Origin: Minisyncoccota bacterium
GTDB taxonomy: Bacteria > Patescibacteriota > Minisyncoccia > Phycocordibacterales > UBA2100
Assembly (NCBI GenBank): GCA_035500505.1
Contig: DATJXE010000003.1
Location: 267,605 to 331,604 of the forward strand
DNA: 64,000 nt
Direction: 5' to 3'
The notes beneath the pieces are model-generated. The model ran no database searches, was not told where the DNA came from, and saw only the letters and a program-made list of their open reading frames with translations. A program made the position numbers and the translations under genes. Of the stretch, positions 349-63,795 are shown in pieces (the stretch's first letter is position 1; every line of letters begins with the position of its first letter).

Positions 349-905
349 TTGTACCGGACGCCGTTCATCGACGGATGCCAGAGCACGAAACGCTCACGCT
401 CCTCGATCCATTCGTTGTCGAACATCAGAGCCGGCCTCTTGAGCGTTGCCTCGCACGTATGACACGTACAGTAGGGCACGCCGTTGTCGGTCTCGCCGAC
501 CTCAACGTCATGCCGCGCCCAACGCTCGAAGATCACGCCGCTACTGAAGTTATTGGCGACGAAAACGCCGGCCGACTCGAAGACCGGCTCGAGGTAGTCG
601 ATGTCTTCGACCGCGAATGCGACCCACGGTTTCTCTGGGTGCTTGGCGATCGCTTCGGCGAGCTTGGTGCAGTCGGCAATCATCTGCTCCTGCGAGTGGC
701 CGGCATCGTTGAAGATGGCGACGATCTGCAAGTCCTTACGCTCGGCGATGTATTGGAGGGCGCCGTGGAGCGTGTCGCGGGGGTTGGAGATGTAGGACCA
801 GCCCATGTGATCGCTCTGGAGCGAACCCTTCATCCATATCTTGGTCTGCATCCACTGGTCGACTGATTGGCCGAACAGCAGCACGTCCGTGTGTCTCCGA
901 CTCAT
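321..905 (-). CDS. hypothetical protein with C-terminal CxCxxC cluster
   Basis: 194-aa ORF; C-terminal YCTCHTCE Cys cluster; family not recognised. Confidence 0.45.
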   Translation of the reverse strand: MSRRHTDVLLFGQSVDQWMQTKIWMKGSLQSDHMGWSYISNPRDTLHGALQYIAERKDLQIVAIFNDAGHSQEQMIADCTKLAEAIAKHPEKPWVAFAVEDIDYLEPVFESAGVFVANNFSSGVIFERWARHDVEVGETDNGVPYCTCHTCEATLKRPALMFDNEWIEERERFVLWHPSMNGVRYKCTPVADAA

Positions 906-1071
906 GTCGGTCTCCTGTCTGGAACTCCCACGGGTACCGCCGTGGTGCGGTTGTTGGCGAAACCAACGCCGCCCGTACTAAACCACAGATTGGTTTACAA
1001 TGGAAGGCGTGGTTTCAAGTTCAAATCTCCTGACATTAAAATGTCTTGGAAAATAAAGAAGAAATTATGAG

Positions 1072-7906: not shown

Positions 7907-7913
7907 CACCTAG

Positions 7914-7977
7914 CCGCCCGTAGCTCAATTGGTTACCTGCCTGCCGGCAGGCAGGGAGCACCGAGCTTATGATTGGC
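7914..7977 (+). other. 5' half of an interrupted tRNA paralogue (acceptor, D-arm with 20-nt palindromic insertion, anticodon stem 5' strand plus CTTATG)
   Basis: CCGCCCG TA GCTC AATTGGTTA [CCTGCCTGCCGGCAGGCAGG] GAGC A CCGAG CTTATG; nearly identical to the intact tRNA at 8080-8153 apart from the insertion and compensatory stem changes. Confidence 0.5.
7937..7956. repeat. perfect 20-nt palindrome CCTGCCTGCCGGCAGGCAGG inserted in the tRNA D-loop
   Basis: Direct reading; a related palindrome is at 46847-46862. Confidence 0.8.
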
Positions 7978-8041
7978 AGCGAGTGGTCATTGAAAATGTG
8001 TGTCCGTCTGTAAGCACAGCTTTCATACGGGGCGCTCGGAA

Positions 8042-8068
8042 AAAATGAGAATATGGTATTCTCATTTT
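8042..8068 (+). terminator. AT-rich perfect hairpin followed by T-run
   Basis: AAAATGAGAATA tgg TATTCTCATTTT then GTT; lies between the 5' tRNA half and the nested tRNA. Confidence 0.4.
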
Positions 8069-8079
8069 GTTCCTCGCTA

Positions 8080-8153
8080 CCGTCTGTAGCTCAATTGGTT
8101 AGAGCACCGAGCTTATACCTCGGGGGTTCCTGGTTCGAGTCCAGGCAGACGGA
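8080..8153 (+). tRNA. tRNA with anticodon UAU (Ile, AUA-decoding)
   Basis: CCGTCTG TA GCTC AATTGGTTA GAGC A CCGAG CTTATAC CTCGG GGGTT CCTGG TTCGAGT CCAGG CAGACGG A; canonical cloverleaf, anticodon loop C-U-UAU-A-C. Confidence 0.8.
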
Positions 8154-8197
8154 CAGACATTTTCACTTGACCCGAGCGAACCAATCACACGAAGTAT

Positions 8198-8233
8198 CCT
8201 CGGGGGTTCTTGGTTCGAGTCCAAGCGGGCGGA
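8198..8233 (+). other. 3' half of the interrupted tRNA paralogue (anticodon stem 3' strand, variable loop, T-arm, acceptor 3' strand)
   Basis: C CTCGG GGGTT CTTGG TTCGAGT CCAAG CGGGCGG A; acceptor CGGGCGG pairs perfectly with CCGCCCG at 7914-7920 and the T-stem CTTGG/CCAAG is self-consistent. Confidence 0.5.
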
Positions 8234-8259
8234 CAAAAAGACCGTGGTACCATGCCGAA

Positions 8260-10707: not shown

Positions 10708-11436
10708 ATGCGAACATTTCGCGTGATCACGGTCTCGTTCGTCGTGCTAGTCGTCCCGCTCGTGGCGTCCGCGCAAAGCACCAACGCCTCCGTTTCCGCG
10801 CTCCTTGCGCAGATAACGGCGCTCCAACAGCAAATAGCCACCCTCACCGGCAGCACGTCTGCGGCGACCTCGGCAGCTTCGACCGGAGGCTCGTACGTTC
10901 CGGCCGCATGCCCGCTTCTTACTCGTTCGCTTTCGCTCGGAGCAAGCGGCGCGGACGTTGCCTCGCTCCAATCGTTCCTCATCGCACAAGGCGACCTGCA
11001 GGCTTCCGCGACCGGCTACTTTGGCACGTTGACGCAGGCGGCCGTTTCGCAGTGGCAACAGCAACATGGCGTGGTCGCCGGGGGCGACCCAACGGCGGTC
11101 GGCCTGGGCGTCGTCGGGCCAAAGACGCGCGCGGCGATACAAACTTCGTGCGCCGGCGCAGGCCAGTCTTCCGTGCAAAACCCTTCGAAAACACAGTGTC
11201 TTCCCGCATCGCCGCCGCAAACGAATTGTTCGACGGGTTGGAAACGCGTGCTCGACTCGGCGGGTTGCACGATGTACTACCAATGCTCGATATCGCTGCC
11301 CACGCCCAGCGCTGCGACATCATCATCGTCCGGAACATCCTGTCCGCTCGTCAACAAGCCGGTGTGTTCAGGAGCGGTGACGCCGTTCCAGACCAACGCG
11401 AACGGCTGCATCGTTTCGTATCAGTGCACCATCTGA
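10708..11436 (+). CDS. secreted PG-binding domain protein with Cys-rich C-terminus
   Basis: Signal peptide MRTFRVITVSFVVLVVPLVASA; LSLGASGADVASLQSFL...GYFGTLTQAAVSQWQ PG-binding motif; 10 Cys in the C-terminal 100 aa. Confidence 0.75.
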   Translation: MRTFRVITVSFVVLVVPLVASAQSTNASVSALLAQITALQQQIATLTGSTSAATSAASTGGSYVPAACPLLTRSLSLGASGADVASLQSFLIAQGDLQASATGYFGTLTQAAVSQWQQQHGVVAGGDPTAVGLGVVGPKTRAAIQTSCAGAGQSSVQNPSKTQCLPASPPQTNCSTGWKRVLDSAGCTMYYQCSISLPTPSAATSSSSGTSCPLVNKPVCSGAVTPFQTNANGCIVSYQCTI

Positions 11437-21698: not shown

Positions 21699-22376
21699 CT
21701 ACTCCAAATCACTTTTCCCGATGTTACAGACTGAACAAAGGGTCTGGAGATTTTCGAGAATTGTCTCGCCCCCGTTCGCCCATGCTTTTATGTGATCTAC
21801 ATGGAGAATGATACTTGGATCAGTGGCAGGAGAACGTCCACAATTTTTGCACTTAAAATTATCGCGCCTCATTACTACAAAACGAAGTCGCCAATTTATC
21901 TCACGCTTAGTTTTGTGTTTGGAAGAAGGTTCAACTTGTAGATTTTCAATCGAACTTTCAGAAGCGACATCTGCGTCATTATTTATATATGCTACAAAAC
22001 TTTCTAAGCCTTTCATCCATGTACCAAAGTGCTTTTTGTAGGTCCCTGCGGAGTATTTTGAGAGCGGTGGGAACATATCTGCCTGTATCGGCTGGTGCCC
22101 CAATTTTGTCCAGACCTCTTCAAGATTTTCAAAAAGCTCCTCGTCACTTACGCGAATATTTTTTTGGTGTCTTGCCATATTAAGACCCGCACGCTCGTGG
22201 GCCTTTGCCCAACCCCCTAACCTATCAGCCATGTTCGAACTATCGAATTTTCCAAACTCGTCCTGTTGCTCTCTCGTAACAAAATCCTGATTTAATTTAG
22301 CAGCAGTATTTTTCAGATCAGCGATGAGCTCATCTTCTGGCGTATTTCTATGGACTTTTTTGAGCTCAAATTTCAT
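21699..22376 (-). CDS. HNH endonuclease domain protein
   Basis: C-terminal CKNCG...HVDHIKAWANGGETILENLQTLCSVCN (HNH motif); N-terminal domain unrecognised; low GC. Confidence 0.85.
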   Translation of the reverse strand: MKFELKKVHRNTPEDELIADLKNTAAKLNQDFVTREQQDEFGKFDSSNMADRLGGWAKAHERAGLNMARHQKNIRVSDEELFENLEEVWTKLGHQPIQADMFPPLSKYSAGTYKKHFGTWMKGLESFVAYINNDADVASESSIENLQVEPSSKHKTKREINWRLRFVVMRRDNFKCKNCGRSPATDPSIILHVDHIKAWANGGETILENLQTLCSVCNIGKSDLE

Positions 22377-22442
22377 AGCCCCATCTTAGCTTGGTTATAG
22401 GAAATATGGCACTCGGTCTCATAACACCGGTGCTCAATCCTG

Positions 22443-22529
22443 CGGAGAGGGAGGGATTCGAACCCTCGGACCGGTTTCCCGGTCAACACATTAGCAGTGT
22501 GTTGCATTCGACCGCTCTGCCACCTCTCC
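22443..22529 (-). tRNA. tRNA-Ser (GCU)
   Basis: GGAGAGG...anticodon loop CUGCUAA, long variable arm GACCGGGAAACCGGTC, T-arm GAGGGTTCGAATCCCTC. Confidence 0.9.
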
Positions 22530-43625: not shown

Positions 43626-44239
43626 ACTTCTTCCTCGATTGAAATATCTTCGCTGTCCTCATCTTCTTCGAACTCATCCGCGTCATCCTCACCGGAAGCT
43701 TGCCGCACGAGGAAACGCGAGAGCGCTCTCGCGATGGACGTGTCGATGTGCGGAACAAGGAAATCTTTTTTCGTTCGGACCTTGCTTAAGGACGTGTGGG
43801 ATGAGGCGATGGTGATGTCGAGCAGCGCGAGTCCGAGGAACCTCCAGTGGTAGGGCTGCTCAATGTGAATGTTGTTTATCTGGTGGTAGGGAATAGTTAT
43901 CTCCTGCACACGTATCAACCCGCGGCGCAAATGCAGCGCGTGTTCGTCGAGGTGGAAAGAATGGGCTCGGTAGATAACGGACGCACGCAGATACGCGATG
44001 AGGAGGAATGCGACGCCCGCGAAGAGTATCCACTGCGAGAGCATGCCGTCGGAGAGGTACCAATTCGGATGATTTGCCAAGAATCCCGCCATTCCGGTTT
44101 CCATCTGCCCGAAGGAAAATTCGTAGGCGAGGTAACAAAGCCCCGCCCCGATGAGGATGAGCCACCAGCCGTGGCGCACGATGAGATACACGAAGGTTCG
44201 CTTGCCGGAGTGGTATTTCCTGTCCAACTCAAGCTCCAT
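43622..44239 (-). CDS. bacterial PH-domain (YdbT/DUF304-like) membrane protein with acidic C-tail
   Basis: Two N-terminal TMs then PH-like domain; C-terminal EDDADEFEEDEDSEDISIEEEV. Confidence 0.55.
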   Translation of the reverse strand: MELELDRKYHSGKRTFVYLIVRHGWWLILIGAGLCYLAYEFSFGQMETGMAGFLANHPNWYLSDGMLSQWILFAGVAFLLIAYLRASVIYRAHSFHLDEHALHLRRGLIRVQEITIPYHQINNIHIEQPYHWRFLGLALLDITIASSHTSLSKVRTKKDFLVPHIDTSIARALSRFLVRQASGEDDADEFEEDEDSEDISIEEEV

Positions 44240-44441
44240 TGCGGTAAGTGTACCACCTCCGGTCCGTGCAAGGTTTCGTGGCTTTTTCGCCCTTTGAAGC
44301 GGGTTTGCGCCGGGTCTGTGGGGACCGGACAACTCAACGGGTTTTCATGTAGTGATCATGAATACGCGAGTAAGACATCGAGTTCATGTCCCGTCTGCAG
44401 GTATGTCCGGTCGAGATTACTCACATTAATGAACACAGCGC

Positions 44442-45152
44442 ATGAAAACGACACAAAGAAAAGCAGATCGTCTCGTAATCGCATGGGTCCTCACCATCGG
44501 CGCTCTTGTCTTCGGCGCATTCGCTTTTGCTCACGCGCAGACGACCATGGTGACGATGCAACTGGGCCCCGGCGACGCAGGTACCCAAGTGACCGCATTG
44601 CAGCAATTCCTCGCGCAGGATACCTCGGTATACCCCGAAGGTCTCACGACGGGATACTATGGCGACCTTACAACGGCCGCCGTGCAGCGCTACCAGTGTA
44701 AGTACAGCATCGTTTGCCAAGGTGATGTCGCCTCCACGGGCTACGGTCGCGTCGGCCCAGCGACGCTCGCTGAAATTGAGACGCAGGAAGGCATCTCGCC
44801 AGGGAACGGCGTTTCGCTGCCCCCGACGAGCACTCCGGTCACAGGACCGGACGTGAACGCCCCTGTCTTGAGTTGGCCGACGGTCTCAACATCGTCCGCT
44901 TCTGCCATCATCAGTTGGACGACGAACGAACCGGCAAATAGCAGCATTCTCTACGCGACAGTGCCGCCAACACTCTCAGCAGCCGGCTTTGCGGCTATGA
45001 CGCACATGACAGCTTCGACGCTAGGCATGTCCCCGAGCGTGATACTATCGGGACTCGTTCCGAACACAAGGTACTACTACGTCATCGAGTCGGTGGACCC
45101 CTCTGGCAATATCCAGTATGGTATCGACCACTCGTTCGTAACGAATTCGTAA
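44442..45152 (+). CDS. secreted PG-binding plus Fn3-like domain protein
   Basis: Signal peptide; LGPGDAGTQVTALQQFL...GYYGDLTTAAVQRYQ; Fn3-like C-domain. Confidence 0.7.
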   Translation: MKTTQRKADRLVIAWVLTIGALVFGAFAFAHAQTTMVTMQLGPGDAGTQVTALQQFLAQDTSVYPEGLTTGYYGDLTTAAVQRYQCKYSIVCQGDVASTGYGRVGPATLAEIETQEGISPGNGVSLPPTSTPVTGPDVNAPVLSWPTVSTSSASAIISWTTNEPANSSILYATVPPTLSAAGFAAMTHMTASTLGMSPSVILSGLVPNTRYYYVIESVDPSGNIQYGIDHSFVTNS

Positions 45153-45235
45153 CGAACCGAACTGTGACAAAACGATGCCCCGCCCGGGCATCGTTTTGTA
45201 CGCGCACTGCAACAAACAATGGGATCGAATTTGTG

Positions 45236-45263
45236 TGCGGGGGCGGGACTGGTCAGGGATAAT
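45236..45263. repeat. partial direct copy of the tRNA-fMet 3' end (TGCGGGGGCGGGACT) plus GGTCAGGGATAAT
   Basis: 15/15 identical to the tRNA 3' terminus at 45432-45446 (plus-strand view); 190 bp beyond the tRNA 3' end; followed by an 11-bp perfect hairpin (45261-45286) and the 20-nt palindrome GTCGCAAAAGCTTTTGCGAC. Confidence 0.6.
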
Positions 45264-45390
45264 TCGTTCGCCGTCGCGAACGAATTTCCACGACCCTGGC
45301 TCGCCGGTCGCAAAAGCTTTTGCGACATGGCTCCGCCTTGCAAGTCCCGACGAGAAGCGCGCAGGCGCTTCTCTCCCCACGCAACAGCAA

Positions 45391-45428
45391 CAAAAGCAGA
45401 ACGCCCCACGAGGAGGCGTTCTGCTTTT
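45391..45428. terminator. bidirectional intrinsic terminator
   Basis: AAAAGCAGAACGCC ... GGCGTTCTGCTTTT (A-run/stem/T-run). Confidence 0.6.
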
Positions 45429-45431
45429 GGC

Positions 45432-45506
45432 TGGTTGCGGGGGCGGGACTTGCACCCGCGACCTCCAGGTTATGAGCCTGGCGAGCTACTACTGCTCCAC
45501 CCCGCT
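45432..45506 (-). tRNA. tRNA-Met (CAU), probable initiator
   Basis: AGCGGGGTGGAGCAGTAGTAGCTCGCCAGGCTCATAACCTGGAGGTCGCGGGTGCAAGTCCCGCCCCCGCAACCA; unpaired 1:72 (A.A) and encoded CCA. Confidence 0.85.
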
Positions 45507-45754
45507 ATCAAAGAAAGACCATTATACGCTCGCGAGAGCCCGGAAGCAAACGGCATTTTTTCCTGAAATGAAGGCGTTTTTCGAACGTCATTGCATGCAC
45601 ACCGTTCGCAAGTTGCGCAAGGTTGAACCTTGCAGAAGGGGACTTGTGAAATATCTCTTAAGAGGCGCGTTGTACTAGACGCACGAGGGAAGCCTCGGAT
45701 CCGCCTCTTGGGAGGGTTCATGGACGGCGTGATCTTAGCAATAACATTCAACCT

Positions 45755-46525
45755 ATGAGACAAACCATTCTCTACGGGCTTATCAGCATTCTTATGGCGC
45801 TCGGCCTGTTGACCGCTGTGCCTGCGTTCGCACAAGGAACGCAAGGACCGGGCGGTTGGGGAGGCCCCGGTCACATGATGGGGAGCATGATGCGTCGTCC
45901 GCCAGGCGTGTTCGGCTCCGTGACCGTCGTGAGCGGCAATACCATCACGCTCCAAAGCAAGGGCTTCGGGAAGAGCGCGACCAGTACGACTACGTACAGC
46001 ATCGACGCGAGCAATGCGACGGTGTTCAAAGACGGCGCCACGTCGACCGTCTCTTCGATAGCGATCGGCGACAACCTCATGGTGCAAGGCACCGTGAGCG
46101 GCACGAGCGTTGCAGCGACGAAGATATATGACAGCATGCCGCAAGGAAAGTTCGGTGGGGGACCGGGCATGCGCCCGCAGCCTTCCTCCTTCCAGGGTAA
46201 CGGCGAGCCGGTCATCGGCGGAAGCATTACTGCGGTGAGCGGCAATACGTTGACGGTCACCAACAAAAGCAACGTGACCTACACCATCGATGCGTCGGGA
46301 GCGACGATACTCAAAGGCAATGCGACGTCTTCGGTCGCGGATATTGCGACAGGCGACAACGTGCTCGTGCAAGGCACCGTGAGCGGGAACACCGTTACGG
46401 CGTCATCGGTCATCGATCAGGGCGTTCCAAAAACTCCTTCCGGCAACGGCTTCGCGCCGCACGGTATCGGGGGATTCTTCGGCGTCATTGGCGGGCTCCT
46501 GCAGCACCTCTTCGGGTTCTTCTAG
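45755..46525 (+). CDS. secreted protein with two ~95-aa internal repeats (DUF5666-like)
   Basis: Signal peptide; repeats VTVVSGNTITLQSK...GDNLMVQGTVSG and ITAVSGNTLTVTNK...GDNVLVQGTVSG. Confidence 0.7.
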   Translation: MRQTILYGLISILMALGLLTAVPAFAQGTQGPGGWGGPGHMMGSMMRRPPGVFGSVTVVSGNTITLQSKGFGKSATSTTTYSIDASNATVFKDGATSTVSSIAIGDNLMVQGTVSGTSVAATKIYDSMPQGKFGGGPGMRPQPSSFQGNGEPVIGGSITAVSGNTLTVTNKSNVTYTIDASGATILKGNATSSVADIATGDNVLVQGTVSGNTVTASSVIDQGVPKTPSGNGFAPHGIGGFFGVIGGLLQHLFGFF

Positions 46526-46528
46526 AGG

Positions 46529-46729
46529 CTAACTGATCTCCTCGAGCGCCGAGAACACGACCTCGGTGCACAGCAAAATAAACACGAGAATGATCGCGAG
46601 TTCGATCGGGCGGGGCGTCAGATAGTAGATCGACGCCCCGGCCGCGTACACCGTATAGCCGGACGCGAGCGCGAGCAGCGCCGAGTTGATATTCAGAACC
46701 GTGTTCCACAACTCCAACTCCAATTCCAT
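46529..46729 (-). CDS. small hydrophobic ORF (uncertain)
   Basis: 66 aa, TM-like; weak evidence. Confidence 0.3.
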   Translation of the reverse strand: MELELELWNTVLNINSALLALASGYTVYAAGASIYYLTPRPIELAIILVFILLCTEVVFSALEEIS

Positions 46730-46777
46730 GGTTCAGCAATATACCACTACTTTGTATAAAGGCAAGTTTTTTCGGTA

Positions 46778-46805
46778 TCGGGGGCGGGATTCGGTCACAG
46801 ATAAC
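46778..46805. repeat. second partial copy of the tRNA-fMet 3'-end repeat (TCGGGGGCGGGATTCGGTCACAGATAAC)
   Basis: Aligns with 45236-45263 (CGGGGGCGGGA[C/T]T-GGTCA[G/C]...GATAA); the downstream sequence looks like a degraded tRNA with an expanded T-loop. Confidence 0.55.
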
Positions 46806-46846
46806 CCGCATGCCGCCGTACGCGGGTTTCCGCGACCCCGCCTCGC

Positions 46847-46862
46847 CCTGCCGGCAGGCAGG
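46847..46862. repeat. palindrome CCTGCCGGCAGG(CAGG), relative of the 20-nt D-loop palindrome at 7937
   Basis: Direct reading; flanked by further hairpins (TTTTGCttagtgGCAAAA; GCGCATC...GATGCGC). Confidence 0.6.
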
Positions 46863-46953
46863 GGTTTTGCTTAGTGGCAAAACATCGCTCCGGCCTTCGA
46901 ATCCCACACGCGCATCGGGCAGGCGATGCGCTCCTCGCACGTCACTTCGTTTG

Positions 46954-47027
46954 TGTCGGGGGTGGGATTCGAACCCACGACCTAGCGCTTATGAAACGCT
47001 CGCTCTAACCGACTGAGCTACCCCGAC
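46954..47027 (-). tRNA. tRNA-Met (CAU), elongator type (could alternatively be Ile2-LAU)
   Basis: GTCGGGGTAGCTCAGTCGGTTAGAGCGAGCGTTTCATAAGCGCTAGGTCGTGGGTTCGAATCCCACCCCCGACA; paired G1:C72. Confidence 0.88.
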
Positions 47028-47234
47028 AAGCTGAGGAGCAAAGTGAGAATAACACATTTGCGCAAGGGGGGCTCGGCCAAGAACAAATCTTGCTTCCGTC
47101 GCAGCAAGATTTTTCTCGGCCCTGATTTTGCGACCCATTCTACTGAATGGGTACCCCGCAAAATCTTTCGAGTCCCGCTGCTCGGCGGCAAAAATATAGT
47201 CACCCGAAGACATGCTTCGGGTTCCTTATTTTTG

Positions 47235-47308
47235 CGCGAGCGGCGGGACTCGAACCCGTAACCTCTCCCGTGACAGGGGAGTGCTCTAACCAGTTGAGCT
47301 ACGCCCGC
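47235..47308 (-). tRNA. tRNA-Asp (GUC)
   Basis: GCGGGCGTAGCTCAACTGGTTAGAGCACTCCCCTGTCACGGGAGAGGTTACGGGTTCGAGTCCCGCCGCTCGCG. Confidence 0.9.
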
Positions 47309-47395
47309 AGGTTGCTTTGTCCCCTGCAAACGTGCGAAGCATAGCAAATTCAGGAGATTTTTCGAGTGCCGGGATGCGATGCTACAATTACACCC

Positions 47396-47881
47396 ATGGA
47401 CAAGGGTGTTGGCAGTGGAGGGCGCATCGAACGGCAGCGCGAGGAACCGGCGGAACTGGTCGTCGAAGAGCTGAAGGACGCCTCCGCGGTGCGGGATGCG
47501 ATCGCTGGGCTCGGACACAACCGCCTGAACGAGCGCGGATTTCTAGACCGGTCGCCCGGCGAGCAGGGTAGGTGGCTCGATCACGTGCAATCGGAGGTGA
47601 TAGATGCCAAGGGCGCCGCGCTCGCAATAAAGCAAGGTGACAAGGTCATCGGATTCGTTCTGGCTGATCCCGATGGCGTCATCACGCAGCTTCGGAGCAT
47701 CGACGAAGAAAGCACTGCTCCCGCGCTCGAAGCGGCGCTCAGGAAGCTGCGGGAGAAGGGGTTCGAGCATCCGATAGTGAAGCTGACAGAAAAAAGCGAA
47801 GACGCGCGAGAGATCCTTTTGAAGAAAGATTTTCACGGAGGAGAGTCGGAGGACGGAAAGATCATGATGAAAAAAGAGTAG
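47396..47881 (+). CDS. hypothetical protein
   Basis: ORF; start at MDKGV placed 6-8 nt after TGCTACAAT. Confidence 0.5.
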   Translation: MDKGVGSGGRIERQREEPAELVVEELKDASAVRDAIAGLGHNRLNERGFLDRSPGEQGRWLDHVQSEVIDAKGAALAIKQGDKVIGFVLADPDGVITQLRSIDEESTAPALEAALRKLREKGFEHPIVKLTEKSEDAREILLKKDFHGGESEDGKIMMKKE

Positions 47882-47885
47882 CGGT

Positions 47886-48539
47886 ATGCGGACCGCGCAG
47901 GAGATATACGCGGCATACCGCATCATGTCGAGCTTGCAGCTGCACCAGTTGCGCGTCGCTGCGGTCGGGAAAACCATTTGCGACCGATTTTCGGGCGTGC
48001 TCGACACGCGCAACGTCGTCCTCGCGTGTCTTTTCCACGATATGGGCAACCTTATCAAGTCCGATCTCGTGACGTTCCCGGAATTTCTCGAGCCGGAAGG
48101 GTACGACTATTGGAAAAAAGTGAAAGACGAATTTGAGGCGAAATACGGAAAGAACGAGCATCACGCGACGATCGAGATCGCGGGGGAGCTCGCGTTGCCC
48201 AAACGCGCGATCGAGCTCATCGACGGCGTTGGTTTTTCGAAACTCGAGACGGCGCGCGATTCGGATTCGTATGAGCAGAAGATCGTGGAGTACGCGGATC
48301 TGCGCGTCGGCCCGTACGGCATACTCTCGATGGACGACCGCATCGCGGAATCGGCAAAACGGTACGTCGGCAAACACCCCGACATGCCGCGCTCGCCGGA
48401 GCGGTTCGCCCAACTCGCCGAGGCCGCGCATGAGGTGGAACGGCAGCTCTTTTCGCGCACCGATATCAAACCTGAAGACGTCAACGACAAAAGCACGGCA
48501 GCGCTCATCGAGGAACTTCGGAATTATTCCATTGAGTGA
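47886..48539 (+). CDS. HD-domain phosphohydrolase
   Basis: H...HD motif (LACLFHDMGNL). Confidence 0.8.
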   Translation: MRTAQEIYAAYRIMSSLQLHQLRVAAVGKTICDRFSGVLDTRNVVLACLFHDMGNLIKSDLVTFPEFLEPEGYDYWKKVKDEFEAKYGKNEHHATIEIAGELALPKRAIELIDGVGFSKLETARDSDSYEQKIVEYADLRVGPYGILSMDDRIAESAKRYVGKHPDMPRSPERFAQLAEAAHEVERQLFSRTDIKPEDVNDKSTAALIEELRNYSIE

Positions 48540-48634
48540 TATTATCGCGGAGCGTTTGCCGAAGTAAGCCCTACGGGCTTTCATCGGCGGCGCTCGGAGA
48601 AAGTGGAAGCAAGCTTCCACTTTGCTCCTCGCTT

Positions 48635-48707
48635 GCCGATGTAGCTCAGATGGTAGAGCAACTCCATGGTAAGGAGTAGGTCGCCGGTTCAATTCCGGCC
48701 ATCGGCT
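48635..48707 (+). tRNA. tRNA-Thr (GGU)
   Basis: GCCGATGTAGCTCAGATGGTAGAGCAACTCCATGGTAAGGAGTAGGTCGCCGGTTCAATTCCGGCCATCGGCT; preceded by an 11-bp perfect hairpin (48601-48626). Confidence 0.9.
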
Positions 48708-48809
48708 CAGGAATTGAACAGGAGAGGGCGGGGAAGTATTGGGAAAACCGTGGGTTTCCCAGGAGTTATTTTCCGACCACCGGCTCAAAGAATGGTAAGA
48801 TAGAAATAC

Positions 48810-60894: not shown

Positions 60895-60918
60895 CGTCCG
60901 CCTGAGGCGGACGTTTTT
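60895..60918 (+). terminator. rho-independent terminator
   Basis: CGTCCGCC tga GGCGGACG followed by TTTTT. Confidence 0.75.
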
Positions 60919-60990
60919 GGGAGATCGTCTAATGGCAGTCGCCTCCACGGCGACCCGCCGCAAGGGCGGGGACAACTGTCCGCGTTACCG
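60918..60990 (+). pseudogene. degenerate 5' copy of tRNA-Gln with 34-nt hairpin-forming insertion in the D-loop
   Basis: TGGGAGATCGTCTAATGG (identical to the first 18 nt of the tRNA at 61008), then CAGTCGCCTCCACGGCGACCCGCCGCAAGGGCGG, then GGACAACTG (matches tRNA positions 21-29), then divergence; no 3' acceptor strand. Confidence 0.55.
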
Positions 60991-61007: not shown

Positions 61008-61078
61008 TGGGAGATCGTCTAATGGTAGGACAACTGACTCTGGATCAGTTAATCTAGGTTCGAGTCCTAGTCTCCCAG
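61008..61078 (+). tRNA. tRNA-Gln (CUG)
   Basis: TGGGAGATCGTCTAATGGTAGGACAACTGACTCTGGATCAGTTAATCTAGGTTCGAGTCCTAGTCTCCCAG; U1:A72 as in many bacterial tRNA-Gln. Confidence 0.85.
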
Positions 61079-62674
61079 CAGAGTTGGACTTTGAGAGCAG
61101 GTTTGCTCGAAAAGTCGTTGTTTTTCCTTGGTATCTATCGGTTCGAACCGTTTGTGTATCTCGCGCACCTCGTTTGAGATTTTCCTGACCGGGAATAGAC
61201 AGTTTTCCGTATCAATGCTCAGTATTTTGTTTTTGACCGTGAGGTTCGAACCGAGAGCTGCCAGAATGCTGCGACGCACCTCGAGGTTACCTTTCTCCAG
61301 CTTCCACTTCGCTTGTTCGATGAACGCGAACATCTCATCGGCTGTGTTCGCCCAACGCTCCACGCGCTCGGTCGTATTGTCGTAGTTGCTATCAAGCTGT
61401 TTCTTTTCGGCAAGTAGCTTCGCTTTCTTTTCCGCGTACTCCTCCGGCCCAATCTCTCCGGCGGCACGCATGTCGGTCAGGCCGTCGAGTTTTGCGAGAC
61501 ACGTCTTGTATGCCTTTTGTTGCGTTTGCACAAGCGCGTTACGTTGCTGGGCCTCTTTCGCATTCTGCTCCCTGAACCATTTCATCGCGAAGCTGTGGAA
61601 CTCCGGCGGGATCTCGAGCCGGTCGATCTCAGCGACGATTTGCTCCTTGAGTTTGGTTTCCTCAATACTACCTTGCGAACAGTCCGGCTTGATGCGTTTG
61701 GTGCAGTGATAGTAGACGTATCGGTGGACCTTGCCATTTTTCGGTCGCTTGAACTTCAGCTCGGCCGTGATAGCAGCACCGCACTCTCCGCAGCGCATCA
61801 TGCCGACAAAGTCGAACACATGAGTTTTTGGGCGCGGCCGGCCTTTGCGTCCGAGGATGACTTGAACTCGGTCAAACTCCTCCTCGGTGATGATGGCTTC
61901 GTGATTGCCGCGATACCAGTTGCCGGTCTTGAGCGGATACTCGAACATGCCATAGTAGACCGGGTTCGAAAAAAGATAGTACAGCGTGTTCCGGCTCATT
62001 TTCTTGCCGTTCGGCATGCGGAAACCCCAGACCCCATTCACCTCATTCAAAAGCTGCGGAACAGTGTAGGTGCCGGTCAGCATCAAGTCCCACATCTTTC
62101 TCACGAGCGGTAGTCGTTCAGGATCGCTCAACAACTTCTTGCTGCCGCGGGGAGTATGTTTGTCGTTCATGTAACCGACCGGCGCGTGGTTCGGCACGTC
62201 GCCGAGTTTCGCTTTCTTTTCGAGACCGCGCTTCACGTCTAATCCTTTTTTGTCGTTCTCCATTTTGGCTTGGCCGCAGGAGAGCGAGAGCATGAACTTG
62301 TCTATCGGAGTGTTTCGGAACGTCTGGCCCGGCGTGACTATCTCGCGGAGTTTGTCGCGGTCCATGAGGTCGATGAGTAGTGCCGCGTCCATCGCGTTGC
62401 GTGAGAGGCGATCAGCGTGCCACACGATGATGCCTTGTATTTCGCTGCGCTCTATGGCGTGCAGCATGTCGGAGAACCGCGGGCGATGGTTCGCCACCTT
62501 GGCCGACTTCGCCTCGCTGAACACGTGCTCGCTTTTTATTTTCGCACCGAGCGACTTCGCGATCTCCTCCGCTTTGTCGGCTTGCGCGTCGAGTGAGAGC
62601 ACCTGCCGGTCCTCGCTTTCAGTGGACTTGCGGCAGTAGGTTCCGTATTGGAGTTTAGTAGCTGTATCCTTCAT
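61067..62674 (-). CDS. large serine recombinase
   Basis: N-terminal resolvase catalytic domain (YCRKSTESEDRQ...SLDAQ), recombinase domain, zinc ribbon (CGECGAAI...YYHC), C-terminal coiled coil; 3' end overlaps tRNA-Gln by ~12 nt on the opposite strand. Confidence 0.9.
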   Translation of the reverse strand: MKDTATKLQYGTYCRKSTESEDRQVLSLDAQADKAEEIAKSLGAKIKSEHVFSEAKSAKVANHRPRFSDMLHAIERSEIQGIIVWHADRLSRNAMDAALLIDLMDRDKLREIVTPGQTFRNTPIDKFMLSLSCGQAKMENDKKGLDVKRGLEKKAKLGDVPNHAPVGYMNDKHTPRGSKKLLSDPERLPLVRKMWDLMLTGTYTVPQLLNEVNGVWGFRMPNGKKMSRNTLYYLFSNPVYYGMFEYPLKTGNWYRGNHEAIITEEEFDRVQVILGRKGRPRPKTHVFDFVGMMRCGECGAAITAELKFKRPKNGKVHRYVYYHCTKRIKPDCSQGSIEETKLKEQIVAEIDRLEIPPEFHSFAMKWFREQNAKEAQQRNALVQTQQKAYKTCLAKLDGLTDMRAAGEIGPEEYAEKKAKLLAEKKQLDSNYDNTTERVERWANTADEMFAFIEQAKWKLEKGNLEVRRSILAALGSNLTVKNKILSIDTENCLFPVRKISNEVREIHKRFEPIDTKEKQRLFEQTCSQSPTLLGD

Positions 62675-62688
62675 ACCTTCATTATGCG

Positions 62689-63795
62689 CTATCTTCGCGC
62701 GAGAAGCCGCTCCAAAATCGCCCTCTCTGCGTCAGTGAGGGGATAACCGCTGCCTTCGTTGGCTTGATAGTCCTTGAGTTTTTGTACGATGCGAACCGCA
62801 TCCTCCTCGCTCATGCCGCCGTAACCGTAGGAGCCAAAGGTGGTAGCGATATTCTCGTGCCCGAGGTTCAAGCTGATGGCGCGTTTTTCCTCCTCGGTGA
62901 GGCGCGTTTTGCTCATCATGCTGACGATGAGATGCCGGAATGAGTGGGGGTGGAAGTATCGCACTCCCGCATCGTGACACCTTTTTTCGAAGATCTTGCG
63001 GGCGGCATCCGTGCCATTCCAAAACGCTTTTCCCACATCGTCTTTGCTGTATCGCACCGAGCCCGCGTCGTGCAGTGTTGCAGGAAAGATGGGATCGTTC
63101 GGGCCGTACCCTTTTCGTTCAAGATACTCGTACCACTCCACGAAAAAGCGCTCTGGGTCGTCCCACCCGATCGGGAAGAACGTCGTGAGTATCGTTTTTG
63201 AGTTTTTGGTGTGAACGCCGTCGCCGGGATTTTGGTGTATCAGTCGCTTCTCTTTGTCGAAGTTCTTCATTCGGAGCGAAATGATCGCGAAGATGCGGCA
63301 GCCGGTGGTGAGGGCAAAACTGATCATCGCACGGTCGCGCCTGTCGATCTCGTTCTTTATCTCGATACCCTCGATGATCTTCTTTGCATCGTCGAAGGAG
63401 GGCGTTGCTCGCGTCGTGCCCGCCCGAGCGATGCGGGCATCACCCTTCGAGAGGCGCAAAAACTCGATCTCATTTTTGAGCACCTTGTTGCGATAGTCGG
63501 GCTGGCCGGAGAGCCATGTAAAGAAGCGCTTGAGGCGGCGCAGGTAGTTGTATTGCGACACGAGCGTGAGTTTGCCCGCCACCGTTTTGGTCTCGCGGGT
63601 TTTGAGCCAATCTCGGAAAGAAGTCGCCGTGGTTTTGTTGAAGGAACCGAAGTCCTCGTTATCGGTGAAGGTCTGCCACTGGCTGATGGCTTCCGCGAAC
63701 TTACTGACCGATGCCGGGGCGAACCCTTCGGCCCCCCGAAGATGCTCAAAAAACTCTCGCTTGAGCTGCTCGTTTTTGTAACTTGTTTTTGTCAT
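62689..63795 (-). CDS. tyrosine recombinase/phage-type integrase
   Basis: N-terminal SAM-like core-binding domain; catalytic R...HxxR...Y pattern (HPHSFRHLIV; GHENIATTFGSYGY). Confidence 0.9.
   Translation of the reverse strand: MTKTSYKNEQLKREFFEHLRGAEGFAPASVSKFAEAISQWQTFTDNEDFGSFNKTTATSFRDWLKTRETKTVAGKLTLVSQYNYLRRLKRFFTWLSGQPDYRNKVLKNEIEFLRLSKGDARIARAGTTRATPSFDDAKKIIEGIEIKNEIDRRDRAMISFALTTGCRIFAIISLRMKNFDKEKRLIHQNPGDGVHTKNSKTILTTFFPIGWDDPERFFVEWYEYLERKGYGPNDPIFPATLHDAGSVRYSKDDVGKAFWNGTDAARKIFEKRCHDAGVRYFHPHSFRHLIVSMMSKTRLTEEEKRAISLNLGHENIATTFGSYGYGGMSEEDAVRIVQKLKDYQANEGSGYPLTDAERAILERLLARR

Follow-up and report, generated by a model that had tools for sequence, protein, structure and literature searches.

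Why does the 3' end of an initiator-like tRNA gene recur, in partial copies, within hairpin-rich DNA of a CPR bacterium from the lineage Candidatus Kaiserbacteria/Paceibacterota? The window analysed here (the whole stretch of DNA, 64,000 nt) contains two such copies, which the first-pass annotation paired as attL/attR debris around tRNA-fMet and a protein gene. We arrive at a different answer: with a probability of roughly 0.6, these partial copies form the outer direct repeats of small insertion modules that lack ORFs and that, in the full form of this explanation, behave as hairpin cassettes. The narrower claim, that the copies are the termini of recurrent mobile insertion modules, is highly probable. 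The 64 kb contain four modules, at the tRNAs for fMet, Met, Asp and Thr (ggt).

The repeat of the fMet 3' end at 45236 that was reported originally is exact: TGCGGGGGCGGGACT is present at 45236-45250 and 45436-45450, the sole two exact copies in the 64 kb, offset by exactly 200 nt. At 45436-45450, on the minus strand, it comprises the T-loop end, the T-stem 3' strand and the acceptor 3' strand of tRNA-Met(cat), the sequence type of which is conserved in 16 Kaiserbacteria loci. By an arithmetic estimate, ~1e-4 exact copies of a 15-mer are expected by chance in 64 kb; with blastn-short, the window-wide E value of the repeat is 0.005. The repeat is the outer part of an arrangement with the order gene end (T1), spacer (X), inverted copy (T'), hairpin core and second copy of the gene end (T2), which is here termed module 1:

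45432..45506, minus strand: initiator-like tRNA-Met(cat), called by ARAGORN and scoring 60.6 bits with the Rfam tRNA model; A1/A72 mismatch, CCA encoded
45436-45454, minus strand: T1, nt 53-73 of tRNA-fMet
45351..45431, minus strand: spacer X, containing an intrinsic terminator hairpin at 45391-45429
45375-45382: second part of the inverted copy, within X, CCCCACGC in plus-strand reading
45352-45373: hairpin GAGAAGCGC..GCGCTTCTC, which splits the inverted copy
45339..45350, minus strand: T', plus strand TGCAAGTCCCGA; inverted copy of the fMet T-loop and T-stem 3' strand
45251..45338, minus strand: core, family A (nhmmer E 6.9e-21)
45308-45327: hairpin GTCGCAAAAGCTTTTGCGAC in the core
45261-45286: hairpin AATTCGTTCGC/GCGAACGAATT in the core, with a conserved apical CGACGG on the tRNA strand
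45230..45250, minus strand: T2, a direct copy of the fMet 3' end, exact over the 15 nt 45236-45250 and then CACAAA

The 185 nt between the repeats of module 1 contain no ORF. T' at 45339-45349 is an 11/11 inverted match to tRNA-fMet, and the same T' lies 68-84 nt downstream of fMet in L004, L019, L020, L028, L039, L045 and L057.

The second, more diverged copy, placed by the first-pass annotation at ~46778, also is present (46777-46793), yet its best match is the second tRNA-Met of the window, which has a module of its own:

46953..47027, minus strand: elongator tRNA-Met(cat), the 3' part of which is T1 of module 2
46910..46952, minus strand: spacer X, with the motif ACGAAGTGA directly after the tRNA end
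46910-46931: hairpin GCGCATCG/CGATGCGC in X
46896..46909, minus strand: T', plus strand TTCGAATCCCACAC; inverted copy of the tRNA-Met T-loop and T-stem 3' strand
46794..46895, minus strand: core, family A (nhmmer E 2.9e-15)
~46845-46864: small palindrome CCTGCCTGCCGGCAGG interrupting the core
~46848-46859: hairpin CCTGCCGGCAGG
46774..46793, minus strand: T2, which repeats the 3' end of tRNA-Met directly; tRNA strand CGAATCCCGCCCCCGATACC

This T2 matches positions 57-72 of tRNA-Met at 15 of 16 nucleotides, compared with 3 mismatches in 15 for tRNA-fMet, and the copy at 46778-46793 therefore belongs to the second tRNA-Met; T' (46896-46907) matches the same tRNA at 12/12 positions. Again, there is no ORF in the 160 nt between the repeats. 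Each copy thus pairs with its own tRNA (45236-45250 with tRNA-fMet, at a distance of 200 nt; 46778-46793 with the second tRNA-Met, at 160 nt), and the two do not form an attL/attR pair. The gene enclosed in the proposed pair (45755-46525) does exist and encodes the DUF5666 repeat protein, and all four of the reported hairpins are there (45261-45286; 45308-45327; ~46848-46859; 46910-46931). The similarity noted between two ~28-nt stretches, CGGGGGCGGGA[CT]T-GGTCA..GATAA, amounts to ~22/29 positions when counted by eye and has a simple cause, namely, that both are the 3' ends of homologous family A cores. A homologous core in L028 lacks the palindrome CCTGCCTGCCGGCAGG, and the X motif ACGAAGTGA is found in many family C modules as well. 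The tRNA-like sequence with an expanded T-loop that had been described here turns out to be the hairpin of the inverted and direct copies, with the core as its loop. We also considered a degenerate second tRNA or tRNA-like gene; neither ARAGORN nor the tRNA covariance model made a call, and this reading was rejected because identical cores also flank protein genes.

Two further modules follow within 2 kb:

47234..47308, minus strand: tRNA-Asp(gtc), the 3' part of which is T1 of module 3
47045..47233, minus strand: module 3, family B; core 47075-47166, E 8.9e-23
47190-47233: X of module 3, a terminator, with a hairpin at 47222-47202 after tRNA-Asp
47167-47189: T' of module 3, an inverted copy of tRNA-Asp, 17/18 (47167-47184)
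~47045-47066: T2 of module 3, degenerate
48709..48789, plus strand: module 4, family C, shortened, behind tRNA-Thr(ggt) at 48635-48708; core E 1.6e-7
48710-48719: T' of module 4, GGAATTGAAC
48720-48767: core remnant of module 4
48763-48789: T2 of module 4

At tRNA-Asp, the tRNA 3' half, the terminator and T' jointly form an ~88-nt quasi-palindrome (47167-47254) centred on the terminator loop.

The common architecture comprises ~100-250 nt without ORFs. The spacer is short and often is an intrinsic terminator, that is, a GC-rich hairpin with a T-run right after the gene; at fMet and Asp, termination accounts for spacer X alone and leaves T', core and T2 unexplained. T', 8-22 nt long, repeats the junction-proximal stretch of the gene end (T) in inverted orientation. 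The flanking direct repeats span 7-50 nt; those set against the MITE pattern measure 9-44 nt, sometimes with only ~75-90% identity. The cores, 60-100 nt long, conserved, hairpin-rich and non-coding, fall into at least four families, A to D. At fMet, Met and Asp, a short inverted copy from the region between T-loop and 3' end, which the first-pass annotation missed, lies between the gene and the direct copy; the layout with the inverted copy recurs in many genomes. In 64 of 69 modules, T1 and the core are 23-83 nt apart, and none of the 69 modules measured contains cargo genes or ORF fragments. A search for cargo-bearing or autonomous versions, extending up to 4 kb upstream of 118 cores, produced a single long gap, in L157, which consists of two modules.

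The modules are predicted to fold strongly (z = -8.4, -3.5 and -6.1 for three modules of the window; -119 kcal/mol for 45215-45431, the region with z -8.4), and the stems formed by T' and T2 contain a 2-4-nt mismatch near the start of T2. Both strands fold better than shuffled sequence (z ~ -3); an apparent preference for the tRNA strand, seen in the raw energies of 33/35 modules, was not significant after the dinucleotide-shuffle control and is withdrawn. Covariation within core C is modest (4/17 pairs); a three-way covariation links the T-loop of the tRNA, T' and T2. A search of 44000-48000 of the window and 8500-11000 of L028 against Rfam 15, at the gathering threshold and with E up to 10, retrieved only tRNAs and tmRNA.

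The four core families recur across 59 related genomes. Among the 161 tRNAs in 59 Kaiserbacteria loci and the window, strong self-matches are concentrated downstream of the tRNA (inverted, 30/159; direct, 24/159), compared with 10/160 direct and 0/160 inverted upstream and a null rate of 0.57%. There are 39 core matches in 950 kb. A tRNA on the same strand stands 24-240 nt upstream of 36 of them, and the remaining three are found behind a tmRNA gene, a deleted fMet gene and an fMet gene with a disrupted 5' part. The specificity for the initiator tRNA that had been suggested for this locus does not hold, the same modules being found behind many other tRNAs: a 21-mer of core C occurs in at least 118 metagenome contigs, and 75 of the 106 evaluable copies stand behind tRNAs with ~29 anticodons. 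The modules depend on the local target: in 67 metagenome modules, T' matches its own tRNA in 62 cases and T2 in 63, compared with 23% and 8%, respectively, for other tRNAs. A direct repeat next to an intact tRNA, as in tRNA-borne elements, is found at fMet (15/15), at Met (15/16), in degenerate form at Asp, and also in relatives; at tRNAs, T1 equals T2. Altogether, there are well over 150 core copies at more than 30 different targets, which contradicts a simple local tandem duplication as the cause of the repeats. In viral contigs, core C had 0 matches, and 58 matches to a degenerate 16-mer of family A were attributed to chance, 0 being confirmed by nhmmer.

Comparison with related genomes, the check proposed along with the att-site reading, did reveal unoccupied sites: the fMet site is empty in L005, L012, L016, L029, L044 and L048, and the Asp and Thr-ggt sites in L238. 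Occupied fMet sites are subject to family swapping, with core A in L004 and core B in L019, L020 and L045, and tandem arrays of modules are present in L006, L031 and L094. In L236, conjugation-type genes occupy the usual place of tRNA-Thr. For the exact empty site, no strain-level relative is on record, the best HD-protein identities being 75%, 67% and 65%, on short contigs; excised circles or autonomous relatives of the modules were not seen among the sequences searched. Of the interpretation as att-like debris, one part stands, namely, that the direct repeats of the tRNA 3' end were left by inserted DNA, given the empty sites in relatives; the other part, decay of large islands, does not, the 100-250 nt between the repeats being a conserved ORF-less core in well over 150 copies.

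The remaining core C copies are located at the ends of rpmG, rpsI, rnhA and a glycosyltransferase-like gene, where the topology is that seen at tRNAs. Cores occur at both 3' and 5' ends of protein genes, including 5' ends on the opposite strand, and, irrespective of the gene end affected, T' is always complementary to the target sequence nearest the junction. Within one genome, the peptides encoded by T1 and T2 are almost identical even though most synonymous sites are different; between genomes, the peptides vary. Both copies are under coding constraint: in nine rpmG cases, third codon positions hold 64 of the 81 differences between T1 and T2 (p = 4e-17), and 55 codon changes are synonymous, compared with 15 that are non-synonymous. 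The differences are not adenine-specific, and the template/variable repeats of DGRs were rejected as a candidate. A second, synonymously diverged gene end at protein genes is a classic signature of integrative elements. T2 looks as though it is maintained as a coding sequence rather than being a simple relic, which would presuppose either that the modules excise and reintegrate often or that T2 is put to some use.

We propose that the modules are miniature integrative cassettes, non-autonomous and non-coding, each equipped with a replacement for the gene end. A small element, T-X-T'-core, possibly mobile as a small circle, would recombine with the chromosomal T near the gene end; the target gene would stay intact because the element brings a replacement end along with its own terminator or leader, and the displaced original end would remain as T2. 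The T/T' hairpin probably marks the crossover: given that the T/T' stem is always junction-proximal and that the 2-4-nt mismatch with T2 is located there, a folded hairpin that mimics the target duplex appears to be the likeliest substrate. By analogy with integron attC or CTX-phage attP(+), such a hairpin may be the active site for a recombinase that would be supplied in trans. We offer this mechanism of hairpin-site recombination tentatively, as less likely than not. Several observations weigh against the cassette reading as a whole: no recombinase is associated with the modules; excised circles, autonomous relatives and viral copies were not seen among the sequences searched; one core family serves dozens of targets; T2 looks maintained; the strand difference in folding vanished after the composition control; and covariation in core C is modest. 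More speculative still is the possibility that the modules are a hitherto undescribed class of self-guided cassettes, in which the core and T' direct strand exchange at almost any gene end, mainly those of highly expressed essential genes, with the replacement end often synonymously recoded and the cassette alternating between the chromosome and a tiny excised form.

The earlier view, that the repeats are classical attL/attR scars of large integrase-bearing islands or prophages that decayed at tRNAs, draws on the direct repeats, which extend from T-loop to 3' terminus and have an intact tRNA on one side, on integrases beside tRNA-Gln in this genome, on the conjugation-type genes of L236 at the place of tRNA-Thr, and on the documented existence of CIMEs, to which such scars would be equivalent (PMC5704250). 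Independent decay, however, would leave heterogeneous gene remnants instead of uniform non-coding cores within a tight size range, the inverted copy T' is foreign to ordinary att scars, and the specific pairing of the two copies was wrong; we consider this view unlikely. Local replication errors, such as tandem duplication, slippage or quasi-palindrome template switching at terminator hairpins, could have produced the ~88-nt quasi-palindrome of tRNA-Asp, and template switching could keep T' matched to T. Such errors cannot yield identical conserved cores at dozens of unrelated loci and genomes and leave the synonymous-only divergence of T1 and T2 unexplained, so that this account is hardly credible.

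Two other explanations assign a function to the module itself. It could be a functional RNA co-transcribed with the upstream gene, in which the helix of T' and T2 would imitate the acceptor/T-stem minihelix or compete with the 3' half of the tRNA, in a role in 3' processing, as a decoy or in regulation, with spread being secondary. Every module lies downstream of a gene and shares its strand, a terminator is missing between tRNA and module in many of the Thr, Lys and Ile cases, and the strong folds, the highly conserved core with some compensatory pairs and the three-way covariation all are compatible with this idea. Nevertheless, tRNA mimicry is senseless at protein-gene ends, let alone at opposite-strand 5' ends; at fMet, Asp and tmRNA, the core lies behind a strong terminator; many orthologous sites lack a module; and there is neither a strand preference after the composition control nor an Rfam match, all of which makes a primary RNA function improbable. 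Alternatively, T' or T2 might be the guide, and the core the scaffold, for a nuclease or recombinase encoded elsewhere that cuts or invades the empty allele, with the recoded end as the rescue, akin to a natural home-and-rescue drive or an extreme IS200/605-type guide. This would fit the invariable complementarity of T' to the junction-proximal target, the near-identical T1/T2 peptides with most synonymous sites changed, and the juxtaposition of a conserved core with a variable target-matched segment, which resembles scaffold and guide. Against it, an associated nuclease gene was not found, some T' are only 8 nt long, the guide-RNA families of Rfam do not match, and at tRNA targets T1 equals T2, which precludes immunity by recoding; furthermore, ordinary integrative elements that carry a gene end predict the same synonymous pattern. 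Homing of this kind, accordingly, has a low probability. The miniature integrative cassette remains our preferred reading.

These cassettes share features with several known systems. Elements with tyrosine integrases target the 3' ends of rpmG, rpsI and tRNA genes (PMC5704250), and the modules have in common with such integrative elements (prophages, ICEs, IMEs) the direct repeats of the gene end, the intact gene, the tRNA, tmRNA, rpmG and rpsI targets, the synonymous difference of the duplicated end, tandem accretion and presence/absence variation. They differ in being only ~100-250 nt long and ORF-less, with a conserved structured core, an additional T' and no linked integrase. In the window, no integrase adjoins a module, and no recombinase is associated with one, the nearest being 14 kb away, at tRNA-Gln; unlike ordinary integrases, one core family serves dozens of targets. 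CIMEs have retained their att sites and lost the genes for recombination and transfer (PMC5704250). The modules similarly keep attL and attR without integration genes, but have no gene remnants or heterogeneous content and possess a conserved core in >150 copies. Full-text literature searches returned general ICE/IME/CIME background only and no description of these modules.

With folded single-strand sites, the modules share the topology of repeat, cargo, inverted repeat, loop and repeat and the arrays of units; they may also have in common an imperfect stem with a small central mismatch at the presumed crossover, and specificity borne by a hairpin. Such sites are the attC sites of integrons and the attP(+) hairpin of the CTX phage used by XerCD. 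In contrast to these, the modules lack an integron integrase, attI, R''/R' GTTRRRY boxes or dif-like arms; their stems are copied from each target, the loop is the conserved core, and the cargo is a terminator or nothing. MITEs and REP/BIME sequences likewise are small, non-coding, hairpin-rich, multi-copy and found at gene ends. The inverted repeats of the modules, however, are target-derived and locus-variable and the interior is constant, the reverse of a MITE, and their flanking repeats are 7-50 nt and variable in length, whereas MITEs have constant terminal inverted repeats, recognised by a transposase, and short target-site duplications of fixed size. Guide-sequence targeting is used by IS200/IS605 elements (IS608), and guide-RNA-directed homing of transposons exists. 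Like IS200/IS605, the modules have a short target-complementary sequence at the foot of a structured region, which could align the target; the module guides, however, measure 8-22 nt instead of 4 nt, the modules duplicate the gene end, and no TnpA, TnpB or IscB gene was seen.

If this interpretation is correct, streamlined CPR genomes (~0.4-0.9 Mb in the records examined) would hold many gene-less integrative elements of ~100-250 nt, which would specify their target by means of a short copy of it. Such elements would explain the tRNA fragments and palindromes that litter tRNA loci and can mislead tRNA annotation and callers of att sites and islands, and they might be a cause of the frequency with which individual tRNA genes flip and turn over. 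In the synonymous-only divergence of the duplicated ends, the history of element and host would have a built-in record. The modules would point, further, to a recombinase whose specificity can be reprogrammed with ease, a property of practical interest, and, should the self-guided version be true, to naturally programmable site-specific recombination in CPR bacteria.

The window comes from a Candidatus Kaiserbacteria/Paceibacterota (CPR) genome, and its nearest GTDB relatives are Kaiserbacteria. Between 45 and 47 kb, ARAGORN and Rfam identify three tRNA genes, and an inverted copy (T') of the gene's own T-loop-to-3' region lies between each of the three and a direct copy of its end, a feature unnoticed in the first-pass annotation:

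45432-45506, minus strand: tRNA-Met(cat), initiator-like (tRNA-fMet)
45339-45349: T' of tRNA-fMet, 11/11 matching
46953-47027, minus strand: second tRNA-Met(cat)
46896-46907: T' of tRNA-Met, 12/12 matching
47234-47308, minus strand: tRNA-Asp
47167-47184: T' of tRNA-Asp, 17/18 matching

The initiator-like tRNA has an A1/A72 mismatch, and 16 related loci share its sequence type. Its T-loop, TGCAAGT, is unusual, and it is the only tRNA of the window to encode CCA, the remaining ones having 'CA' after the discriminator.

The first-pass annotation interpreted partial copies of the tRNA-fMet 3' end as attL/attR debris bracketing this tRNA and a secreted-repeat-protein gene. The repeat itself is confirmed: the only two exact copies of the 15-mer TGCGGGGGCGGGACT in the 64 kb are at 45236-45250 and, within the gene, at 45436-45450, and the protein gene (45755-46525) encodes a DUF5666 repeat protein. 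The second, diverged copy is also present (46777-46793); it is a better match to the second tRNA-Met (15/16 positions) than to fMet (12/15). The two copies are not a pair bracketing the DUF5666 gene; instead, the partner of each is the end of its own tRNA. The first-pass interpretation therefore holds in part, in that the copies are indeed att-like.

To examine this layout, the 300-nt flanks of all 161 tRNAs in the window and 59 related loci were scanned for self-matches. Strong matches downstream were inverted for 30/159 tRNAs and direct for 24/159; upstream, 10/160 were direct and 0/160 inverted (null rate, 0.57%). The order behind tRNAs is invariant, namely, tRNA, 2-85 nt, inverted copy, ~50-100 nt, direct copy, and both copies follow each genome's own tRNA sequence.

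The stretch separating the inverted from the direct copy is non-random: profile searches delineate at least four core families, A, B, C, and D, of which B is related to A. Among 39 core matches in the 950 kb searched, 36 follow a tRNA on its own strand, at a distance of 24-240 nt. The three without an intact upstream tRNA lie behind a tmRNA gene, whose 3' end recurs there as a perfect direct copy along with a second terminator; at a site that has lost the fMet gene; and behind a 5'-disrupted fMet gene. In the related locus L010 (2080-2480), the fMet gene is deleted and the terminator and module are still there; in L003 (100-460) and L079, its 3' half is intact and its 5' half replaced. Locus L009 carries an intact family C module behind tmRNA, and in the window, a diverged sequence resembling family C, GGAGATTTGAACTTGAA ... 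ACCCGTGGGAGTTCCAG, is found at ~900-1010 (minus strand), downstream of the tmRNA (1071-1417).

In the window, the fMet and Met modules contain family A cores, the Asp module a family B core, and the Thr-ggt module a shortened family C core. The copies reported in the first-pass annotation, with their flanks, look alike because the fMet and Met cores share family A ancestry. All four hairpins quoted there are present: two are helices in the family A core of the fMet module, one (46910-46931) is in the spacer behind tRNA-Met, and CCTGCCGGCAGG is part of a small palindrome inserted in the second family A core. This palindrome, CCTGCC..GGCAGG, is found at 46845-46864 (family A core), at 7937-7956 (tRNA-Ile fragment), and at ~10850-10866 of locus L028 (family C core); its insertion inside other elements suggests a separate, spreading mini-palindrome. 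The module regions fold far better than shuffled sequence (z = -8.4, -3.5, and -6.1), and the alignment of family C cores (n = 13) contains two conserved hairpins and a few compensatory changes, at a very high level of sequence conservation; no core or module matched Rfam.

The modules are not restricted to tRNAs. At least 118 metagenome contigs contain a 21-mer of core C; of the 106 copies that could be evaluated, 75 follow a tRNA at 25-320 nt, with ~29 different anticodons represented. In 67 modules compared with their own tRNA, the inverted arm matches in 62 and the direct copy in 63; with other tRNAs, the rates are 23% and 8%, respectively. The other core C copies occupy protein-gene ends with the same topology, that is, gene end (T1), spacer (X, often a terminator), T', core, and direct copy (T2):

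rpmG (L33), 3' end, always TGCAAA|TGGTG
rpsI (S9), 3' end
rnhA, 5' end
glycosyltransferase-like gene, 5' end

A family A core was found at another small protein gene. In every case, T' is complementary to the part of T next to the remainder of the gene, be it the start or the end of T, and T2 usually carries 2-4 changed bases at that edge. The T1-to-core distance is 23-83 nt in 64 of the 69 modules measured, none of which encloses a gene.

Across nine rpmG cases, 64 of the 81 differences between T1 and T2 fall on third codon positions (p = 4e-17), with 55 synonymous and 15 non-synonymous codon changes. Within a genome, the two encode nearly identical peptides; between genomes, the peptides differ. 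Given this bias and the shared peptide, T2 is not a freely decaying relic; the pattern is the one seen with elements that insert within a gene and supply a substitute end, and suggests that both ends have been in use over evolutionary time.

We conclude, with a probability of about 0.85, that the tRNA copies are the termini of recurrent insertion modules. The modules are read as site-specific integrative elements, small mobile non-coding cassettes that insert at gene ends and bring a replacement end. An arrangement of repeat, spacer, inverted repeat, loop, and repeat is the product of single-strand, folded-hairpin recombination, as in integron attC and CTX-phage attP(+). The T/T' stem with its central mismatch fits a recombination site of this kind, an inference made with modest confidence. 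The modules are not integron attC sites, because they lack shared core boxes and a linked IntI, nor MITEs, because their 'terminal repeats' vary and their interior is constant. Pure replication error or artefact is ruled out by the recurrence of the cores across multiple loci and studies.

Three other explanations appear less probable: a co-transcribed functional RNA; a guide-plus-scaffold homing system, which would carry a recoded rescue copy of the gene end; and decayed classical islands. The 3' ends of rpmG, rpsI, and tRNA genes are known insertion targets of ICEs and IMEs with a tyrosine integrase, and CIMEs, which lack an integrase, have been described (PMC5704250). The modules share this logic; however, having neither an integrase nor a gene remnant, they are not ordinary islands or CIMEs. 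No recombinase linked to the modules was found, the nearest in the window being a pair 14 kb away, beside tRNA-Gln:

61067-62674, minus strand: large serine recombinase gene, stop overlapping the tRNA-Gln 3' end
62689-63795, minus strand: adjacent tyrosine recombinase gene

This region (61067-63795) resembles an ordinary element integrated at tRNA-Gln and running off the window. In addition, the intact tRNA-Gln (61008-61079) is preceded, 90 nt upstream, by a tRNA-Gln 5' fragment (60918-60978; nt 1-18 exact, then nt 21-29) whose D-loop contains an inserted 34-nt double hairpin, and a free-standing HNH homing-endonuclease gene (HNH_repeat + HNH; 21699-22376) starts 66 nt downstream of tRNA-Ser(gct) (22442-22529). 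No excised form was found among the sequences searched, and no viral or autonomous copy in searches for the cores. The literature searched, coverage of which was incomplete so that an earlier description is possible, yielded no published account of the modules.

A mirror-image, 5'-type module precedes some tRNAs: all eight tRNAs with the conserved leader motif, GGCGCTCGGA(A/G)AAA - hairpin - TTTGYTCCTCRCT, are preceded by two copies of their own start, nt 1-9 repeated directly at -73 to -82 and nt 1-7 in inverted form at -53 to -58. The order is orphan nt 1-9 copy, short loop, inverted nt 1-7 copy, and leader abutting tRNA +1. Such modules occur in loci L001, L004, L019, L025, and L029 and in the window, where a tRNA-Ile-like gene (7913-8237) is also split around the intact tRNA-Ile(tat) by an insert of ~220 nt with ~45-nt inverted ends:

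8004-8079: 5'-type module (Ile)
48558-48634: 5'-type module (Thr-ggt)
8080-8154: intact tRNA-Ile(UAU)
7913-7975: 5' half of the split gene, D-loop holding the 20-nt palindrome CCTGCCTGCCGGCAGGCAGG
8196-8237: 3' half of the split gene (37 nt, 89% identical, E 8e-9)

The modules turn over at orthologous sites. Among 16 Kaiserbacteria loci, the fMet site is empty in 6 and holds family A or family B in others, and the Asp and Thr-ggt sites are empty in a relative with a 67% identical HD protein. Tandem arrays occur in L006, L031, and L094, each unit beginning right after a T copy. In L236 (2974-8542; HD protein 65% identical), genes for Replic_Relax, TrwB-like coupling, and TIR-domain proteins downstream of the HD gene occupy the usual place of tRNA-Thr, probably as a conjugative or mobilizable island. 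Across Kaiserbacteria (L001-L059 versus window 45432-48708), the genes keep the order fMet - Met - Asp - HD gene - Thr - Thr. The strand of single tRNA genes flips between genomes (- - - in the window, + + + in L028, - + + in L004, and + - + in L019), and the flanking inverted copies of tRNA ends are candidates for the cause of these flips.
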